From: Dehalococcoidia bacterium
Lineage (GTDB): Bacteria; Chloroflexota; Dehalococcoidia; Bin125
NCBI GenBank assembly: GCA_965215555.1
Contig: OZ244071.1
Coordinates: forward strand, 2,304,190 to 2,368,189
DNA: 64,000 nt
Direction of reading: 5' to 3'
Shown here: positions 11,815-20,977 of the stretch, piece by piece
How the letters are laid out: each line of letters starts with the position of its first letter
How positions within the stretch are numbered: the first letter of the stretch is position 1
Program-made: the position numbers and the translations under genes
The notes under the pieces: generated by a model
Databases searched by the model: none
Told to the model about the DNA's origin: nothing
The model's input: the letters and a program-made list of their open reading frames with translations, nothing else

Positions 11815-13269
11815 TCAGTCCGTGTTCTGCACATTTGGGTACAGAGTCGGAGCATCGCCGCCGTGCCCGTTCTGATGCAACGGCGATTGTTGTCGAAGCG
11901 CTTGGGGTTTGGGCACGGTCATCGACCACTCGCGAATGCGTTCTGACTGGTCGTGCCGATGTGCAAACCGCCAGAGCAGCCACAGCGCCGTGCCGATCGT
12001 GACCACCACCAGCAGCGCCAGTCCGAATGCGGCCGGAAACGAAACGAGATCCGCCACTGGCAGGAGCGCGATCACCACAATGCTCATGACACCGCCGTGT
12101 ACCAGCGAAAAGATCGACAACACCGTTGCGCGCTGATTGGATGTGATTCGTCGGTTGATGTAGCCGGTCGCGATCGGCCGGATCGCCGCCTGGGCAATGC
12201 TGACCATGAAGATGGCGCCCAGCAGACCGAGATGGTTCCAGATCGCGAGCGGAATCAGGAAAAGCGCTCCAAACGCGAGGATTGCGGGGAAGGAGCGTCG
12301 CGCGCCCAACCTGCCGATCAGTCTCGCGGCCGCCATCATGCCCAGCATGGTTCCAAGGTAGCCAGGGATCAGCAACGCCGACCAGATGAACCCGTCAGCC
12401 ACGCCGGCTAGTGGGTCGAGACCATGCTGCGCCACGTACGGCTGAGACACGAAACGCGGGAGATCGAACAGCGCGATCAAGATCGCCGCGAACGGCACCA
12501 GGTAGCGAATCGGTCGATTGCGCCAGACGATGCGGAATCCTTCGAGCATCTCGTGCATGATCGGCATCCCGCTGTCTGTGTGGGGAGCCTGATTCGGGTG
12601 GTCGGCAGCCGTGTGCCGGACGTCTGACGGGGGCGCATGGAGTGGATCCGGTGCAAAATCCGATTCTCGGCGCGGCGGCTCACGCAGCGACAGCGCTGCG
12701 ATTGCTGAGACAACAAAGAATCCTGAGGAAACGAGGATGGTCGCGGAATATCCAAGGAAGTACGCGACTGGTCCACCGATCGCTGTCGCGAGCACCATCA
12801 TGGCCCAGAACAGCCCATGAGAACGCCCCGCGTGGCGTTCATAGTCGCCGGTTTGGCCCAGGACTCGCAGCGTGTCGTAGAGCAGGGCGTCGCCAGCGCC
12901 GGAGTAGAGGGTCATGCCCACACCCATCACGAGGTACGAGCCCAGCAGGAGCGAGAAGGAATCGGCCATCGCGAAGATGACTGTGGAGATCGCAAAGAGC
13001 ATCGCGCCGAGCGCCAGCGACACGCGCCGACCAAATCGGTCCGCGATCGCACCAGTCGGGACTTCGCAGATGATGATCGTGAGCCAAAAGAATGACTCGA
13101 TAATGCCGACTTCTGTCAGAGACAGGCCGCGTCCATCCATCAGATAGATGATCCAGATGGGCAGAAAGATCATGAACCCGGTCGAGGCCATGAACAGGTA
13201 GTACACGCGGATATTGCGTTGGAAGCGACGCGGTTCGTACTTCGGTAGGGCAGGAGCGAGAGCGGACAT
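11815..13269 (-). CDS. MFS transporter (paralogue 1)
   Basis: EVPTGAIADRFGRR, SGAGDALLYD, RRITSNQRATVLS. Confidence 0.9.
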   Translation of the reverse strand: MSALAPALPKYEPRRFQRNIRVYYLFMASTGFMIFLPIWIIYLMDGRGLSLTEVGIIESFFWLTIIICEVPTGAIADRFGRRVSLALGAMLFAISTVIFAMADSFSLLLGSYLVMGVGMTLYSGAGDALLYDTLRVLGQTGDYERHAGRSHGLFWAMMVLATAIGGPVAYFLGYSATILVSSGFFVVSAIAALSLREPPRRESDFAPDPLHAPPSDVRHTAADHPNQAPHTDSGMPIMHEMLEGFRIVWRNRPIRYLVPFAAILIALFDLPRFVSQPYVAQHGLDPLAGVADGFIWSALLIPGYLGTMLGMMAAARLIGRLGARRSFPAILAFGALFLIPLAIWNHLGLLGAIFMVSIAQAAIRPIATGYINRRITSNQRATVLSIFSLVHGGVMSIVVIALLPVADLVSFPAAFGLALLVVVTIGTALWLLWRFAHRHDQSERIREWSMTVPKPQALRQQSPLHQNGHGGDAPTLYPNVQNTD

Positions 13270-13335: not shown

Positions 13336-14073
13336 TCAGTCAGGAGGGCGGCTCGGAGACAGCGGTCGCCGCCGCATCTGGTTCCAGGAACGCGGATACT
13401 GCGCGTTTGTGGGGCGCGTCTTAGTTGCAACCAGGATGTCTTCCGGTGGATCGATTGGCGTGATTTCTGCGCCCAACTCATGTGCCGTTTGTTCAGCCAG
13501 ACGCATCTCTGCCAGCGGGAGTTCGCCCGTCCAGGCCGCGGCGATGCCGCCAACCTGCAGGAAGGGAACCATGAGCTCGAGCGCTGTTGTCGGTGGAGCG
13601 ACTGCTCGGCTGATCGCCAGGGAGAACCCTTCGCGCATTTCAGTGTGTGCGGCCAACTCGGCGCGTTCCCGCAGGACTCCGATGTGAGGTGCGTCAAGCA
13701 TGGCAACGATCTCAGACAGGAAGTCCGCTGCACCGGTGCGCGAGTCCAGCAAGGTCGCCGCTCGTTCTGGTTCGCAGAGGGCGTAGGGCAAGCCCGGAGT
13801 GCCATTGCCGCTGCCGATGTCGACCATTGGTCCGTGCGGCACCGGCAAGTCGGCGCCGATCAGGCGATGTCGCCCTGCCAATGGCTCAATGATGTGCTTG
13901 TGAATCGCGGTGTCGGGCTCTCGAATTGCTGTGAGATTGCGTGGCGCATTGAGCATGCCGCTCAGCCAGATGCTCAGTTGCGCGGCCAGATTTGGATTCA
14001 GGTCCTCCACATAACTCAGGCCTGCCAGGCTGAGCGCCGTTCGAATCTGCTGCTGGGCTATCAGGTACGGCAT
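13336..14073 (-). CDS. rsmG: 16S rRNA m7G527 methyltransferase RsmG/GidB
   Basis: NLTAI, KHIIE, SAM motif VDIGSGNGTPG, RAE, SRAVA, and C-terminal KTRPTNAQYPR. Start probably ATG 14073. Confidence 0.88.
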   Translation of the reverse strand: MPYLIAQQQIRTALSLAGLSYVEDLNPNLAAQLSIWLSGMLNAPRNLTAIREPDTAIHKHIIEPLAGRHRLIGADLPVPHGPMVDIGSGNGTPGLPYALCEPERAATLLDSRTGAADFLSEIVAMLDAPHIGVLRERAELAAHTEMREGFSLAISRAVAPPTTALELMVPFLQVGGIAAAWTGELPLAEMRLAEQTAHELGAEITPIDPPEDILVATKTRPTNAQYPRSWNQMRRRPLSPSRPPD

Positions 14074-14187
14074 CGGCAAGGGAGTAGGATAGGGAAGTCG
14101 GGGCCTGGTGATGCTCTGTTCGCGCCGCGTGTCACGCGGGAGGGCCACCAGACGACTCGAACACTGCTCGATAGTTGGAGACGACTA

Positions 14188-15219
14188 ATGGCATTCTTTG
14201 ACGACGAACAGACAACCGACGCGGTGGAGGAGTCCGTGGACGACGTGGTTGAGGGCGACGCCGAGATCTTCGATGAGCCGGTCGCCGCAGAAACGGAAAA
14301 CGGAACCGTTGCTCCGTCCAAGCCGATCACCCTGGACCTGGCGGTGATGGAGTACTTCAAGTGGGAGGAAGAGCGAGAGGCGAAGCGCTCGCGACGCAAG
14401 ACGACGACGACCACGCGGCCGCGTCGAGGCGCATTCGTTCTGGACGAGCCGGCGCGCGAAGCGGTCACGAGATTTCTCTGGCACTTCGGTCCCAGTACGC
14501 CGATCTCGGAACTCTCACCCAAGACGATGGAGGGGTTCCAGGAAACCATCGGCACCAACGCCATGGATCTTGCCTCGCGCCTGCAACCAGTGAAGGAATT
14601 TCTGCGCTTTTGTTGGAAGCAGCAATACACGGTCACCGTCGATGCCGAGGGTGAGGTCAGCGCGCAGAACCTGGGCAACTACCTGCGAATCAAACGGGCC
14701 AGCAATGTGGTGCGCGACGCGTCGCGCTTCCAGCATGAACAGGCCCAGACCTTTGAGATGACCGCTGCTGGTCTCCAGTCGTTGCATGAGGAACTGGGAC
14801 AGCTCAACGCCGAGATGCCCGAAGCCGTGCAGGCTGTGGCCGCCGCGCGCGAGGACAAGGACATCCGTGAGAACGCTCCGCTCGAGGCAGCACGCGAGCA
14901 TCAGGAGCGTCTCAAGTCACGGATCGATGAACTCGAGTACCAGATTGCGCACGCCGTGGTTCGCGATGAACGAGCGACAGGGCGGGCCAAGCTGGGCAGT
15001 CGCGTGTCGGTCGTCGAAGTAGACGATAACGGCGGCTTGCTAGGCGAAGCCAGAGAGTACACTCTCGTTGGAACCACCGAAGCGAATGCCGCGGCGCGGC
15101 GGATCTCGGTCGAGAGCCCGCTCGGTCGCGGACTGCTTGACCAACCTGCCGAGCGGCAGATCGAAATCCAGGCCCCCAGCGGTCGCAAACGGTTCCGCCT
15201 CCTCGCGGTCACGGGCTGA
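14188..15219 (+). CDS. greA: Transcription elongation factor GreA with a long N-terminal extension
   Basis: C-terminal ~160 aa has MTAAGLQSLHEEL, acidic tip EDKDIRENAPLEAARE and ISVESPLGRGLL. ATG 14188 adds about 180 aa upstream. Confidence 0.9.
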   Translation: MAFFDDEQTTDAVEESVDDVVEGDAEIFDEPVAAETENGTVAPSKPITLDLAVMEYFKWEEEREAKRSRRKTTTTTRPRRGAFVLDEPAREAVTRFLWHFGPSTPISELSPKTMEGFQETIGTNAMDLASRLQPVKEFLRFCWKQQYTVTVDAEGEVSAQNLGNYLRIKRASNVVRDASRFQHEQAQTFEMTAAGLQSLHEELGQLNAEMPEAVQAVAAAREDKDIRENAPLEAAREHQERLKSRIDELEYQIAHAVVRDERATGRAKLGSRVSVVEVDDNGGLLGEAREYTLVGTTEANAAARRISVESPLGRGLLDQPAERQIEIQAPSGRKRFRLLAVTG

Positions 15220-15342
15220 CCGGCCAGATTCGGCCGGCCGTCCAGGCGAGACGAAACACGAGCGAGATGTGCCGCCTCCCGTGCGCACCGGGACGCGGTG
15301 TCCATCCACCAACTGAGCGTGCGCGCGGGGAAAGTGGCGCCG

Positions 15343-16512
15343 ATGTCCGATATTCCGACCATTGAGTTCACGATCACCAATGACAACCTCGACACCGGTT
15401 TGCGCGGCTATCCGGTGGGTACCTGCGAAACCAGTTACGTCGACCCGCAGGAAGGCGTGTCGTACGTCGGCTATCCGATCGCCGATCTGGCCTTCTTGCC
15501 GGCCGAGGACATCATTCACCTGCTGTTCAACAAGTCTCTGCCAACGGATGCCGAGCGTCAGGCAGTTGCTGACGACATCGCCGAACGCTCCGAGGTCTCC
15601 GAGGACGCGGTGGCCTCGATCTCGGCACTGCCGGCGGCCGGGCATCCGATGGACCAGTTCTGCGCCGCCATCCAGATTCTGGGTATGACCGGCAAGACCG
15701 ACGACTATTACGAAGACTCGCTCAACCTCGTCGCCCGGATTCCGACGGCACTCGCAGCAATCTTCCGCAAGCGTGAAGGCTGGGGCCCGCCAATCCCCTC
15801 GGAGCCCTCGCGCGGTTACGTGAACAACTTTGTCCACATGCTGGGCATGCCCGGCGGGGATGAGGAAGCGTTGACCCGACTGCTGTCGGTCTACTACAAC
15901 CTGCATGCCGACCACGGCGGCGGCAACCTCTCGACGTTCACCGGACGCGCGGTCGCTTCGGGTCTGGCCGACATGTATCGCTCGATGGCTTCTGGGATGA
16001 ACGCGCTGGCCGGACCTCGACACGGTATGGCCAACCAGGACGCCTTCAAGATGGTCCAGGAAGTCGACACCGAAGATCCTGATGCAGCCTACGAGGCGCT
16101 CAAGGAACGACTCGCCAGCGGCGGCCTGATCTTCGGCTTCGGTCACGCAGTCCTGCGTCAGGAAGACCCCAGGGCCAAGGTGCAGCTGGGTATCGGCGAG
16201 GAACTCTGCCCCGACGACCACTGGTTCAAGGTGGTCAAGGCAGTCCGCGAGGGCGGTATCCGTGCCCTGAGCGAGAACCCCAAGGTCTCCAATCCGTACC
16301 CCAACGTCGACCTGATCTCCGGCAGCCTGGTCAATGCGCTGGGCTTCACCGACCCCGACTATTACACCACCCTGTTCGGTTGGTCGCGGATCGCTGGCAT
16401 CGGCGCGCAGATCGTGGACGAGCGAACGCGCGCGCGGAATGGTCGAGGCGTGGCGATCTATCGACCCCGCTACATACCCATCAACCAGCCAGCCCGCTCA
16501 CTCTCCAGCTAA
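15343..16512 (+). CDS. gltA: Citrate synthase, eukaryote-like type
   Basis: GLRGYPVG, HADHGGGNLS, ALAGPRHGMANQ, GFGHAVLRQEDPR, NPYPNVD. The catalytic His/His/Asp are all present. Confidence 0.9.
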   Translation: MSDIPTIEFTITNDNLDTGLRGYPVGTCETSYVDPQEGVSYVGYPIADLAFLPAEDIIHLLFNKSLPTDAERQAVADDIAERSEVSEDAVASISALPAAGHPMDQFCAAIQILGMTGKTDDYYEDSLNLVARIPTALAAIFRKREGWGPPIPSEPSRGYVNNFVHMLGMPGGDEEALTRLLSVYYNLHADHGGGNLSTFTGRAVASGLADMYRSMASGMNALAGPRHGMANQDAFKMVQEVDTEDPDAAYEALKERLASGGLIFGFGHAVLRQEDPRAKVQLGIGEELCPDDHWFKVVKAVREGGIRALSENPKVSNPYPNVDLISGSLVNALGFTDPDYYTTLFGWSRIAGIGAQIVDERTRARNGRGVAIYRPRYIPINQPARSLSS

Positions 16513-16604
16513 TGCTCGAGAAGCGAGATCTGTGGACTCACAACGCCCAACTCATCCTGGGGGGATAGCCACTGTCGCAGGGCTGGGTTAGGATCGGAGA
16601 TCGA

Positions 16605-16627
16605 CCGCGCCCCTACTTGGGGCGCGG
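16605..16627. promoter_or_regulatory. Perfect 9-bp GC hairpin upstream of the oxidase operon (terminator of gltA or 5' leader stem)
   Basis: CCGCGCCCC-TACTT-GGGGCGCGG, with no U-tract. Confidence 0.5.
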
Positions 16628-16652
16628 CTGAGCGAGAGGCGAACAGACGGTA

Positions 16653-17795
16653 ATGCCCACGCTGGAATCGGCGAGGCAGAAGCGCGGGAGCGTCCTTCAG
16701 CAAATCGCTGAGGCGTCTTACGGCTATCCCAACGACGAGTTTCCCGATCGCGAAGTCACGACCAATTTCCCTGAGGAACAGATGGGCGTCCGCGTCCGAT
16801 CGGGCGGTTGGCTGTATCCCGACCTCGTCGTCACCGACGAGCCTGGCCACTTCGTTGCCCTCTCCGGCGATCTGGCACTCGCCCACGAAGTCACCAATGA
16901 AACCGCTGTTGAACGCTGGAAGCCACTGGCCCAGGCGTCGCCGCTCGTCCTCTACGTCCCCATGGGACACAGTGGCCGCGCGATTCGCCTCTGCCGCATG
17001 AACGGGATCAAGCTGCACAAGCTGATCGCTTACCGGCAGCGACCGGCTGGATTCGGCATCGATCTGCAAGAGGCCTACAGCGGTCCCGACCTGTTCAAGC
17101 CGATCGCCGGACTGCTGCCACCGGCCCTCCGACCGATGGTCTACCGCACCGAGCGCAAAGTCGTCGCAGATTCCTACTTGCAGCCATTCCCGGCTTCACG
17201 CAGCGGCGACGTGCCGGCGATCGCAGGTCCGGCAGAACAACCGCCAGCAACGCTCGCGCTGGCATCGGGTATCGAAGACGAACACGGCCATGGCGACCAT
17301 GACTCTCCCGAGACCCACCTGCCACCGCCCAGTCTCGCTCCGATCCTGTTTGCACTCGGCCTGATGATGACCGCCGCCGGAGCGGTGTTCGTTGGTGAGT
17401 TGCTCGGTGTCGGCATCACGTTGATCATCATCTCGGCCGTGCGTTGGTTGCTCGATGACATGGGCTACTTCGAAGCGGGCGGTCCGGCAGAGTTTCGTCA
17501 GAATCCTTTGCAGGTTATGCCTGAGGTGGCTCCGCCGCCCGGCGTGCACATGCCGCCTCCCAGCATTTCTCCAGTCATGTTCGCCATCGGCCTGATGATG
17601 ACCGCTGCAGGGGCAGTCTTTGTCGAGCATCTGCTGGGCGCCGGCATCACCCTGATCGTGTTTGGTGGCGTTGGCTGGTTCCTGGAAGACATCAAAGCCT
17701 TCGAAGAGCCTGTGCACGATGACCACCACGACGACCACGAATCGGACGCACCACTCATGGCCGGTGCGGACGGCGCAGAACAGCGCGCCGGATAG
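16653..17795 (+). CDS. Fusion protein: unknown soluble N-terminal domain plus two cytochrome c oxidase subunit IV (CtaF-like) TM hairpins
   Basis: First gene of the oxidase cluster. Repeats HLPPPSLAPILFALG...RWLLDD and HMPPPSISPVMFAIG...GWFLED, flanked by His-rich stretches. Confidence 0.65.
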   Translation: MPTLESARQKRGSVLQQIAEASYGYPNDEFPDREVTTNFPEEQMGVRVRSGGWLYPDLVVTDEPGHFVALSGDLALAHEVTNETAVERWKPLAQASPLVLYVPMGHSGRAIRLCRMNGIKLHKLIAYRQRPAGFGIDLQEAYSGPDLFKPIAGLLPPALRPMVYRTERKVVADSYLQPFPASRSGDVPAIAGPAEQPPATLALASGIEDEHGHGDHDSPETHLPPPSLAPILFALGLMMTAAGAVFVGELLGVGITLIIISAVRWLLDDMGYFEAGGPAEFRQNPLQVMPEVAPPPGVHMPPPSISPVMFAIGLMMTAAGAVFVEHLLGAGITLIVFGGVGWFLEDIKAFEEPVHDDHHDDHESDAPLMAGADGAEQRAG

Positions 17796-17851
17796 CGACA
17801 ACGAACAGTGCTGAACACAGAGCTGCAACAGGGAGAGAAGGGAGCGGGCGC

Positions 17852-19204
17852 GTGACGGCATTTCAACGGTTGTGGCGAACGCGATTCGGTCGACTAACGC
17901 TAGTTATGGGCGCTGCCGCCCTGGCTCTGCTCGCGCTCACCGGTTTGGCCAGCGCGCAGGTCGCACTGCCCGAAGCGGTCTCCGAGCAAGGCGATTCGAT
18001 CCGCACGCTCTACTTCATCGTCTTCGCCATTGGCGTCATCGTCTTCATCATCGTCGAGGCGATGATCCTATGGGTCGTGTTCCGCTACAAGCGCAAGTCC
18101 GACGACGAGCTGCCCACACAGGTTGGCCATAACACCACTGCTGAAGTCCTCTGGACGGGTATCCCGACGGTCATCGTCGTCATCCTGTTCTTCGTGTCGT
18201 TCTTCGTGTTGCAGGACATTCAGGCCGCCGCCGATCCCGACGAGGAAGTGACTATTGTCGACGTCCAGGGTCGTCAGTGGGCCTGGGCGTTCAACTACGC
18301 GGTGCCGCTCGGCACTGAGTTGTCCGAGAGTATGTCCGAGGACCTGGCCGAGACAGACATCCATCTTGAGGACCCGTCCCTCGTCGTCCCGTTCATGACA
18401 CTCAAGATGGGCGTCGAGCACATGCGCGTCGTCGCCCGGACCGGTGATGTCGTCACGGTTGAGCGAGCTGTCAACGGTACGGTCGCCATCCGGCATAGCG
18501 CAGGTTCTGAAATCATGCGCGTCTTCAATGGCACCGACACGGTCGCCGAGGGTCGACTGCAGGCCGCCGACAACACGCCGATTGTGACCGTCCCGGTTGG
18601 CCAGATGATTCGCTTCAATATCGCATCCGCTGATGTGCTGCACGCCTTCTACACTCCGCAGTTCCTGACCAAACTTGACGCGGTCCCCGGCCGTGTGCAG
18701 ACCCTCTGGGTTCGAATCACCGACACCGGTGACTTCCAGAGCCAATGCGCTGAGTTCTGCGGTCGCGACCACGCCCGGATGATCTACACAGTCAGGGCGT
18801 TGCCGATGGCCGATTACGAGGCCTGGTTCGAAGACAAGGCAGGCGACGCACCCGAGCCGATCGAAGGCGACTTCGGTGGCGAAGAAGAGGTCGAGATGGA
18901 AGAGGGCGCGATCGGCAATCCGGCCAACGGCCAGAACCTGTTCTTCTCCCTGGGCTGCAACGTCTGCCACGGCGACAGCGGTGAAGGCCTCGTTGGCCCG
19001 ACCATTGCCATGACCGTCGTACCGCTCGACCGAGTGATTCTGCAGTACCGTGAGCCGCTCGAGGCGATGACCGAGTTCACGCCCGATCAGGTTTCGGACG
19101 AAGAAATCGCCGACATCTACGCTTGGCTGCAGTCGGTCGAACGACCACCTGCGGCAGACGAAATCCCCAGCAAACTGGCAGAATTGATCGAGGCCGGCGG
19201 CTAG
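17852..19204 (+). CDS. ctaC: Cytochrome c oxidase subunit II with C-terminal cytochrome c (caa3 type)
   Basis: Signal peptide, 2 TM, GRQWAWAFNY, CuA ligands DVLHAF and CAEFCGRDHARM, heme c motif CNVCH. Confidence 0.95.
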   Translation: MTAFQRLWRTRFGRLTLVMGAAALALLALTGLASAQVALPEAVSEQGDSIRTLYFIVFAIGVIVFIIVEAMILWVVFRYKRKSDDELPTQVGHNTTAEVLWTGIPTVIVVILFFVSFFVLQDIQAAADPDEEVTIVDVQGRQWAWAFNYAVPLGTELSESMSEDLAETDIHLEDPSLVVPFMTLKMGVEHMRVVARTGDVVTVERAVNGTVAIRHSAGSEIMRVFNGTDTVAEGRLQAADNTPIVTVPVGQMIRFNIASADVLHAFYTPQFLTKLDAVPGRVQTLWVRITDTGDFQSQCAEFCGRDHARMIYTVRALPMADYEAWFEDKAGDAPEPIEGDFGGEEEVEMEEGAIGNPANGQNLFFSLGCNVCHGDSGEGLVGPTIAMTVVPLDRVILQYREPLEAMTEFTPDQVSDEEIADIYAWLQSVERPPAADEIPSKLAELIEAGG

Positions 19205-19246
19205 CCCCGCCACGGCGGACGCGAAGACGCAGAGGGAGGCATCACG

Positions 19247-20977
19247 ATGGCGACACTGGCGGGGGCTCAGAACACACCGTATGCAGGCGCAAATGCCTGG
19301 CGCGTGATCCTCGAATGGTTGACCACGGTCGACCACAAGAAGATCGGCATCATGTACCTCTGGACGGCCGGCGCGTTCGGACTGGTCGGCATGGCGTTCT
19401 CCCTGGTTATGCGCACCGAGCTGGCGCAGACCGGCACCATCATTTCAGCCGAGACTTACAACTCGATCTTCACGATGCACGGCAGCGTGATGATCTTCCT
19501 CTTCTTGCTACCGGTCGGCGCGGCGTTCATGAATTACTCGATGCCGCTGCAAATCGGCGCGCTCGACATGGCGTTCCCTCGAATTAACGCGCTGTCCTTC
19601 TGGATCTTCCTCTTCGCTGGAGTGCTGCTGACCCTCAGCTTCGCTGTTGAGGGTGGAACCGCCTCCGCAGGCTGGACCGCCTACGCGCCTATCACGCTTG
19701 ACACGGGCAACAATGCCGAGCCGCCCGGCGTCGGGATGGACATGTGGTTAGTCGGTGTCATCCTGTTGGGTCAGGCGTCCATCTTCGGGTCTGTGAACTT
19801 CTTAGTCACGATCTTCAAGATGCGCGCGCCCGGCATGACCATGTGGCGCCTGCCGTTGTTCACCTGGACTACGCTCGTCACCGGTCTGCTGATTCTGCTC
19901 TCGACTCCGGTCCTCGCCGCTGCACTGGTGCTCGGCTTCATCGACCGCAACGGCGCGGGCGGAGCATTCTTTGACCCGGCCGCCGGCGGACAACCGCTGC
20001 TCTGGCAGAACCTGTTCTGGTTCTATTCGCACCCAGCCGTCTACATCATGATCCTGCCCGCGATGGGGATCGTCTCCGACGTGTTCGGCGTCTTCACCCG
20101 ACGCCCCGTCTTCGGCTATCGCTCGATGGTCCTGGCGCTTGTCGGCATCGGGTTGCTTGGATTCATCGTCTGGGCACACCACATGTTCACTACCGGTGGC
20201 GTCTTCCTGCCCTTCTTCATGGGTGCGACGTTCCTGATCGCGGTGCCAACCGGGGTCAAGATGTTCAACTGGATCGCCACCATGTGGCGCGGATCGAACA
20301 TCTTCCCCACGGCGATGCTGTTTAGCGTCGGATTCCTCATGCTCTTCCTGATTGGCGGCATCACCGGCGTCTTCCACGCGGCCGTGCCTGTCGACTTCGC
20401 CCTGCACGACACCTACTTCGTCGTTGGGCACTTCCACTACACCATGTCGATTGCGGCAACCTTCGGATTCCTCGCCGGTTGCTACTACTGGTTCCCCAAG
20501 ATGTTCGGCAAGTTCATGAACGAGGGCCTGGGCAAGCTCCATTTCTGGCTGTTGTTCATTGGCGTCAACCTGGTCTTCTTTACCCAGCTCTTGCTCGGGC
20601 TCGACGGCATGCCTCGCCGGATCAATGACTACGTTGACAACCCCGGCTGGGAGCTGATGAACATGCTGATTACGATCGGCGCGTTCGTCTCGGCCGCTGG
20701 CATGATGGTGTTCCTCTGGAACGTGTTCTACTCGCTCAAGTGGGGCGAGCGCGCAGGCTCCGACCCGTGGGAAGGCACCACGCTCGAGTGGGCGACGACA
20801 TCGCCGCCGCCGCCACACAACTTCGACTCGCTGCCCGAGATTCGCTCTGAGCGACCGCTGTTCGACCTCCGCTTCGGCGAGAAGCTGCAGGACGACCCGC
20901 ACTACCACGTCAACAACGGCCACAGCGGTGGAGGCGGCGCCAAACCGCCCTCCGCGTCCGCGCGGGAGGAGGGCTAG
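19247..20977 (+). CDS. ctaD: Cytochrome c oxidase subunit I, A2 type
   Basis: TVDHKKIG, TMHG, WFYSHPAVY (YS motif), WAHHMF, DTYFVVGHFHY, GMPRR. Confidence 0.97.
   Translation: MATLAGAQNTPYAGANAWRVILEWLTTVDHKKIGIMYLWTAGAFGLVGMAFSLVMRTELAQTGTIISAETYNSIFTMHGSVMIFLFLLPVGAAFMNYSMPLQIGALDMAFPRINALSFWIFLFAGVLLTLSFAVEGGTASAGWTAYAPITLDTGNNAEPPGVGMDMWLVGVILLGQASIFGSVNFLVTIFKMRAPGMTMWRLPLFTWTTLVTGLLILLSTPVLAAALVLGFIDRNGAGGAFFDPAAGGQPLLWQNLFWFYSHPAVYIMILPAMGIVSDVFGVFTRRPVFGYRSMVLALVGIGLLGFIVWAHHMFTTGGVFLPFFMGATFLIAVPTGVKMFNWIATMWRGSNIFPTAMLFSVGFLMLFLIGGITGVFHAAVPVDFALHDTYFVVGHFHYTMSIAATFGFLAGCYYWFPKMFGKFMNEGLGKLHFWLLFIGVNLVFFTQLLLGLDGMPRRINDYVDNPGWELMNMLITIGAFVSAAGMMVFLWNVFYSLKWGERAGSDPWEGTTLEWATTSPPPPHNFDSLPEIRSERPLFDLRFGEKLQDDPHYHVNNGHSGGGGAKPPSASAREEG

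Follow-up and report, generated by a model that had tools for sequence, protein, structure and literature searches.

What a GreA protein might gain from 188 additional N-terminal residues is the question raised by one gene in a 64,000-nucleotide (nt) stretch of DNA from a Dehalococcoidia bacterium (assembly GCA_965215555.1, contig OZ244071.1, positions 2,304,190 to 2,368,189 of the forward strand), hereafter called the window. The gene (14188..15219, + strand) encodes 343 amino acids (aa) plus a stop codon. Its translation, its Pfam and NCBIfam matches, and 37 orthologues point to a fusion between GreA and a domain resembling the core-binding (CB), or SAM-like, domain of tyrosine recombinases. 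In the usual description, a Gre factor is a small protein of two domains that exchanges freely and competes for the RNA polymerase secondary channel. An initial annotation, prepared from the nucleotide sequence alone, had recognized the fusion, and every string it quoted is present in the translation, namely the acidic tail (aa 1-45), KRSRRKTTTTTRPRRG (aa 66-81), EAVTRFLWHFG, ISELSPKTMEGFQETI, LASRLQPVKEFLRFCWKQQY, NLGNYLR, and DIRENA. Here, we describe the fold, the distribution, and the possible role of the added domain, which may tether GreA to nucleic acid or to the polymerase.

Domain composition of the fusion protein

Evidence for the fold comes from sequence profiles and from structure models. 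Pfam found no match in aa 1-185 of the window protein, and NCBIfam returned nothing credible for the extension. Among 98 relatives, the only recurrent Pfam families besides GreA were Phage_int_SAM_4 (5 of 98, best E 0.0023) and Phage_int_SAM_1 (3 of 98, best E 0.0013), both at sub-threshold scores, and Phage_int_M was matched a single time. A profile of 71 N-terminal domains searched against all PDB sequences placed 3nrw first (E 0.0013; profile positions 3-98 aligned with chain residues 2-106). This entry is titled 'N-terminal domain of phage integrase/site-specific recombinase', and the integrase N-domains 2kd1 and 2kj5 were also among the six matches listed. Alignment with relatives of 3nrw by hhalign gave a probability of 78% over 94 columns against a thin template, a five-sequence alignment; the attempt to build this profile returned only four matches, some of them frameshifted, and one 3nrw relative in the template carries PF13495 and PF02899.

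The structure models, from which the acidic tail was left out, point in the same direction. The AlphaFold model of window residues 45-187 (pLDDT 86, pTM 0.77) has four helices, followed by a beta-hairpin and a short helix. In Foldseek searches with this domain, integrase N-domains top the PDB list, but with E-values of 0.7-2.8, a weakness that can be ascribed to inserts degrading the match. Most of the best matches in the viral library were integrases as well, with probabilities up to 0.94. For P0024, an orthologue without the inserts (model of aa 1-104, pLDDT 84), all of the top 18 PDB matches were tyrosine-recombinase CB or N-terminal domains. This model aligned with 3nrw at a TM-score of 0.73/0.73, a root-mean-square deviation of 2.5 Å, and a probability of 1.00, and with lambda Int (1z1b, 1p7d, 1z19) at TMq values of 0.60-0.72; further matches included Tn1549 Int, 3lys, 2kob, and 2kd1. 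The assignment of the extension to the recombinase CB fold is well supported by these models, and homology to that domain is likely. Hence, the initial reading of the helical unit as CB/SAM-like is borne out by the fold, lambda Int included, and by a weak but specific sequence similarity, seen in the 3nrw profile match. Its statement that no recombinase catalytic domain is present also agrees with Pfam, which finds no Phage_integrase match in the window protein; the remainder is GreA. The window protein is not a recombinase.

Residues 189-343 form a normal GreA with a D-x-x-E acidic tip. The coiled-coil domain at its N-terminal end (aa 189-260; 14752..14967, +) is marked by GreA_GreB_N (PF03449; aa 191-258, E 1.9e-17, 63.6 bits, with the cut-off at 24.5) and by the match to 1grj, and the C-terminal globular domain (aa 261-343; 14968..15216, +) by GreA_GreB (PF01272; aa 264-342, E 3.9e-14, 52.8 bits, with the cut-off at 26.9). 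With both Pfam domains above cut-off, the Gre domain is intact, as had been proposed, and its acidic tip reads DIRENA (aa 225-230, within KDIRENA). The D225-I-R-E228 stretch (14860..14871, +) is invariant in all 38 orthologues; we take D225 and E228 to be the equivalents of D41 and E44 in E. coli GreA. In a PDB sequence search, E. coli GreA (1grj) was the best match (E 1.1e-18) and Thermus Gfh1 the second (E 3.8e-14). GreA models also rank best in NCBIfam, yet all equivalog scores remain below cut-off, including NF001263 (113.5 bits against 145, the best) and TIGR01462 (108.6 against 139). Judged by these scores, the window protein is a divergent GreA and not an NCBI 'equivalog'. The catalytic D-x-x-E tip is retained in the GreA part, a putative cleavage factor.

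The extension (aa 1-188) precedes the Gre domains, and comparative data bear on its status as coding sequence. An orthologue scan using one genome per species found 37 loci, all in Dehalococcoidia or Chloroflexota metagenome-assembled genomes (MAGs) and many of them from sponge bins, among which the extension is 44-95% identical. All 37 encode complete fusions (322-356 aa) with the same start Met, and a stop codon lies one codon 5' of this Met in several loci. Pairwise dN/dS values range from 0.13 to 0.45 in the acidic tail, 0.07 to 0.11 in the helical domain, 0.06 to 0.23 in the linker, and 0.04 to 0.09 in GreA. These patterns indicate that the extension is translated, conserved, and under purifying selection.

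A start just ahead of the Gre domain, which would leave the extension outside the protein, is refuted. The sole feature in its favor is an internal Met at aa 191 (FEMTAAG), and no support for it was found. Against it stand the conservation of frame, start Met, and motifs down to 44% identity, the stop codons immediately 5' of M1 in several orthologues, dN/dS well below 1, and a confident AlphaFold model of the extension. The initial annotation had placed the start upstream of the extension, and the Met shared by 37 orthologues, the upstream stops, and the low dN/dS confirm this position. Its mention of long GreA proteins in Dehalococcoidia also holds, in that the long form is confined to Dehalococcoidia/Chloroflexota MAGs among the 37 loci. 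Two irregular sequences can be mentioned here. The L031 orthologue contains small in-frame tandem duplications, with APLTLEA present twice in the tail and LVGTTE and ANAAA repeats in the GreA C-terminal domain. P0002 (152 aa), a close long-form relative, has apparent frameshifts, with matching segments alternating with unrelated sequence, and is a pseudogene or an assembly error.

The extension opens with the acidic tail (aa 1-45; 14188..14322, +), which has a net charge of -14 by charge count, is absent from relatives of ~270 aa, and is clade-specific and probably disordered. Within it, the alignments reveal a nearly invariant DDVVEG motif (aa 18-23; 14239..14256, +): D19, V20, V21, and E22 are invariant in alignments A1 and A2, and the 38-sequence alignment reads D/G-D-V-V-E-G/D. 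Helix A follows (LDLAVMEYFKWEEEREAKRSRRKTT, aa 49-73; 14332..14406, +; AlphaFold model residues 5-29, pLDDT 82-96). It matches the family motif TLxEAxxxYLxxL, and a basic run lengthens its C-terminal end. Between helices A and B lies a basic, Thr-rich insert (KRSRRKTTTTTRPRRGA, aa 66-82; 14383..14433, +), with a net charge of +8 by charge count and no counterpart in short forms; it prolongs helix A and then forms a low-confidence loop ahead of helix B (model residues 31-40, pLDDT 55).

The CB-like core (aa 83-147; 14434..14628, +) comprises helices B (87-100), C (111-121), and D (125-144) in the AlphaFold model; it is supported by a pLDDT of 89-97, the 3nrw profile match, and the Foldseek matches to recombinase CB domains. 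Helix D is succeeded by a 13-residue beta-hairpin insert (TVTVDAEGEVSAQ, aa 148-160; 14629..14667, +), with strands at model residues 105-107 and 113-115, which is absent in loci L033-L037 and in short forms. A last short helix and the basic end of the domain (NLGNYLRIKR, aa 161-170; 14668..14697, +) are recognized by conservation, with a mean identity of 0.93 over 38 orthologues and the family motif NLxxHLRxKK. The linker to GreA (aa 171-188; 14698..14751, +; pLDDT 62-65) has a net charge of 0. The acidic tail, the basic insert, and the hairpin are clade-specific additions of the 343-aa form. With respect to the boundaries first proposed, the helical CB-like unit stands, its start does not, as the domain begins earlier with helix A (ITLDLAVMEYFKW), and the basic stretch interrupts the domain as an insert instead of forming a unit of its own.

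Family members and known relatives

The initial annotation was limited to the long form, and sequence comparison places the fusion in a much wider family of ~270-aa proteins. An initial search for homologues of the extension recovered just seven proteins; an exhaustive profile search recovered representatives of 100 clusters, formed at 50% identity, with E <= 0.001. Most members are ~270 aa long, with the CB-like domain at roughly residues 5-115 and GreA thereafter, and the median length of 56 complete fusions is 273 aa. Pfam detects GreA_GreB_N in 69 of 98 relatives, and a local GreA model finds both parts in 72 of 105 matches, the rest being nearly all truncated fragments. On this evidence, the CB-like domain appears tied to GreA. 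It diverges widely, at 21-40% identity across the family, around the consensus TLxEAxxxYLxxL - ~10 residues - QxExxRFVRWxGxxR ... LxPxxVxxYAE ... RLxPVKxFLxYAKKxGxTxxNLxxHLRxxK. The short forms come from metagenomic contigs, and the ~270-aa form is probably ancestral, as inferred from distribution only.

Some members depart from the common layout. In P0016 (573 aa), K/A/E/Q-rich repeats with a length of ~270 aa separate helices A and B of the CB-like domain. The window protein has its 17-aa basic insert at this very position, and the A/B junction can hence be regarded as an insertion hot spot. In P0017 (381 aa), the GreA coiled-coil tip is partly duplicated, with a degenerate copy (AEARENKDSLGDAPLEAARED) preceding the intact one (AQAREDKDIRENAPLEAAREY), and Pfam reports two GreA_GreB_N stretches. 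Other unusual architectures were rejected. P0023 (1098 aa), with 12 apparent tandem 'copies' of the domain, is a W/C/S-rich open reading frame (ORF) of near-identical ~86-aa repeats that matches the profile at E 1.9e-13 overall but at E 0.1-0.3 per copy; its appearance is that of a tandem DNA repeat in translation, and of a false positive. Fusions to 4HBT (P0061) and to GFA and DUF6961 (both P0023) were likewise set aside as gene-calling or repeat artefacts.

Comparison with known systems delimits what is new in this arrangement. The window protein shares with canonical GreA (E. coli, 1GRJ) both full-length Gre domains, in its C-terminal 155 aa, and the D-x-x-E-N-A tip; it differs in the 188 extra N-terminal residues and in its sub-cut-off NCBIfam scores. 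With the CB domains of recombinases (3NRW; lambda Int 1Z1B/1P7D; Tn1549 Int 6EN2; PF13495, PF02899), the CB-like domain has in common the four-helix fold and conserved hydrophobic positions in the same order, whereas the window copy is distinguished by the helix A/B insert, the hairpin after helix D, and the lack of a catalytic domain following it. In Chlamydia and spirochaetes, long GreA proteins (NCBIfam NF004969, 718 positions, named 'transcript cleavage factor/unknown domain fusion protein'; NF011309, 906 positions) also combine a C-terminal Gre module with a lineage-specific N-terminal extension. However, the window protein matches only their Gre part (model positions 565-703 and 750-893), and their extensions are much larger and unrelated to it in sequence. 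In eukaryotes, TFIIS offers an analogous layout without homology. Its domain I is a helical bundle dispensable for catalysis; next come a part that binds the polymerase and an acidic element that extends to the active site via the pore or secondary channel. TFIIS domain I serves in protein interactions and does not have a DNA-binding fold of the recombinase type.

Two gaps in existing resources coincide with this family. No model in Pfam (2025 copy) or NCBIfam release 20 covers the CB-like domain, and a full-text literature search turned up no account of GreA fused to a CB domain. Where sources give these proteins a name, it is plainly 'transcription elongation factor GreA'.

Candidate functions of the added domain

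The Gre coiled coil enters the secondary channel of RNA polymerase, so that the acidic tip reaches the active site, and structures of GreA and GreB place the N-terminus at the outer end of the coiled coil. In the fusion protein, the GreA coiled coil would enter the channel as usual, and the appended domain would stay outside, at the channel rim. A linker of ~18 residues would position the CB-like domain near the rim helices, the jaw, and the downstream duplex. Because the GreA N-terminus lies at the outer end of the coiled coil, the appended domain would be within reach of downstream DNA. GreA is known to bind elongation complexes transiently, with a KD of ~1 uM, and the rim-helix tip, the jaw, and the downstream double-stranded DNA adjoin one another (PMC11724273). 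Conserved Arg/Lys residues of helices B and D, together with the basic stretch after helix D, would then bind nucleic acid without sequence specificity, downstream DNA being the most likely target. Through such tethering, a factor that otherwise binds weakly and briefly would be retained on elongation complexes.

We therefore favor, with a probability of about one half, a reading in which GreA has acquired a remote homologue of the recombinase CB domain as a non-specific tether to nucleic acid or RNA polymerase, raising GreA occupancy on elongation complexes. This is the best-supported interpretation because a DNA-binding fold coincides with conserved Lys/Arg positions. In the window clade, the module would have been rebuilt, with four basic positions lost, a basic extension of helix A gained, and the acidic DDVVEG tail added. 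This tail would most likely modulate the tether, either by folding back on basic surfaces (the helix A extension and what is left of the basic face) in an autoinhibitory or competing manner, or by docking on a partner via DDVVEG.

Several observations weigh against tethering. By absolute standards, Foldseek E-values of 0.04-0.9 are weak, and the matches of relatives to the Phage_int_SAM families lie below threshold; modest Foldseek E-values are usual for helical domains of ~100 residues. Recombinase CB domains normally clamp DNA jointly with the catalytic domain, and an isolated CB domain may bind DNA poorly. Charge adds a further difficulty. The N-terminal segments of short forms have a mean net charge of +5.4 and 11 columns with at least 60% Lys/Arg. 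The window protein keeps 7 of these 11 conserved basic columns, as R95, R131, K136, K144, R167, K169, and R170 by conversion of the alignment columns, and has D, W, T, and W in the remaining ones. Its extension has a net charge of about -11, its helix B-D core is about neutral (-1), and its linker to GreA is neutral where that of short forms is K/R-rich. Hence, the simple 'DNA tether' interpretation is weaker for the window protein, given the acidic extension and the loss of four of the 11 basic positions. DNA binding by this protein may be weaker, regulated, or replaced by protein binding.

The last of these options leads to the most serious alternative. The CB-like domain could be a protein-protein module that recognizes a lineage-specific surface of the Chloroflexota RNA polymerase, or another factor, and that anchors or regulates GreA in the manner of TFIIS domain I without binding nucleic acid. 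The near-neutral core and acidic extension of the window protein would suit such a role, as would the replacement of two conserved basic positions by Trp. The invariant DDVVEG resembles a short docking motif, and the almost exclusive occurrence of the domain with GreA fits co-evolution with one partner. The majority of short forms are nonetheless basic (mean +5.4, 11 Lys/Arg columns, K/R-rich linker), and all structural relatives found are DNA-binding domains. We consider protein docking possible yet unlikely. Somewhat more doubtful still is a bolder version of DNA binding, in which the CB-like domain would clamp the downstream duplex or fork and turn GreA into a resident subunit with an anchor on DNA. 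The acidic DDVVEG tail of the sponge-associated clade would then mimic DNA, holding the factor back from free DNA and letting it go only on the polymerase. On this view, a DNA-binding module of recombinases would have been recruited to the control of transcription elongation.

Two other explanations seem improbable. The CB-like domain might read a specific DNA sequence or structure and recruit GreA to particular loci or promoters. Recombinase CB domains contribute to core-site recognition, a precedent for this idea, and conservation within the CB-like domain is highest in helices B and D. The locus of the gene, however, is a housekeeping one, and neither repeats nor a recombinase nor a mobile element is associated with it. 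The domain is only 21-40% identical across the family, and there is no conserved candidate site to pair with it. For the same reasons of locus and context, nothing points to the locus-specific action or the coupling to chromosome transactions suggested in the initial annotation. An equally slim chance attaches to a Gfh1-like inhibitor or competitor of the secondary channel, in which the extension would control when the channel is blocked. The second rank of Thermus Gfh1 in the PDB sequence search (E 3.8e-14) and the sub-cut-off scores of all NCBIfam GreA equivalogs are compatible with it. The better match to E. coli GreA (E 1.1e-18), the invariant D-I-R-E-N-A tip that fits the D41/E44 pattern of GreA, and the conserved single-copy housekeeping locus argue against it. 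Non-specific tethering remains the reading that we prefer.

Genomic setting and significance

The reading frame runs from an ATG at 14188 to a stop codon at 15217-15219, and a Shine-Dalgarno-like GGAG, read from the sequence, lies 7 nt 5' of the ATG (14177..14180, +). A longer open frame from 13321 was rejected, as it consists of stop-free GC-rich sequence in antisense overlap with rsmG. This GidB/RsmG gene (13336..14148, -) is the divergent neighbor of greA, and an MFS transporter gene (484 aa; 11815..13269, -) adjoins it. The GC-rich region around both genes contains many long antisense ORFs that are composition artefacts. A promoter and terminator scan around the fusion gene gave nothing informative.

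Gene order around the fusion (13336..20977) is GidB/RsmG (divergent), GreA, citrate synthase, and a CoxIV-like gene, and the related locus L038 has the same order, with COX2, COX1, and COX3 after the CoxIV-like gene. In the window, the ORFs at 17852..19204 and 19247..20977 correspond to the L038 cox genes by size alone. The 380-aa ORF at 16653..17795 (+) consists of two near-identical membrane modules (PPPSLAPILFALGLMMTAAGAVFV... and PPPSISPVMFAIGLMMTAAGAVFV...) and has a weak Cyt_c_ox_IV match, below cut-off. Its 340-aa counterpart in L038, also with a faint Cyt_c_ox_IV match, directly precedes COX2, COX1, and COX3. The short member P0024 (268 aa) is found in the same gene order, with GidB (divergent), GreA, citrate synthase, CoxIV-like, COX2, COX1, and COX3, which makes it an orthologue with a housekeeping location. 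Another short member has a different, equally ordinary gene neighborhood.

A search with E. coli XerD as query found no tyrosine recombinase in the window or in 41 loci; as a consequence, there are no CB sequences local to these loci. Neither a second GreA nor a second CB-like copy was present in the 64-kb window or in the loci searched, and no tRNA genes or Rfam families at gathering score occur across the 64-kb window. The fusion gene sits in a housekeeping locus, without recombinase or mobile-element context.

The family described here is widespread, with 100 clusters at 50% identity and the long form in 37 species-level MAGs, and it joins GreA to a recombinase-type DNA-binding fold. Annotation pipelines gain a definable domain from its delineation. 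Were GreA indeed tethered to DNA or the polymerase by this domain, the fusion would represent a new control of secondary-channel occupancy. It would then also provide a clear case of a recombinase core-binding domain at work outside recombination.

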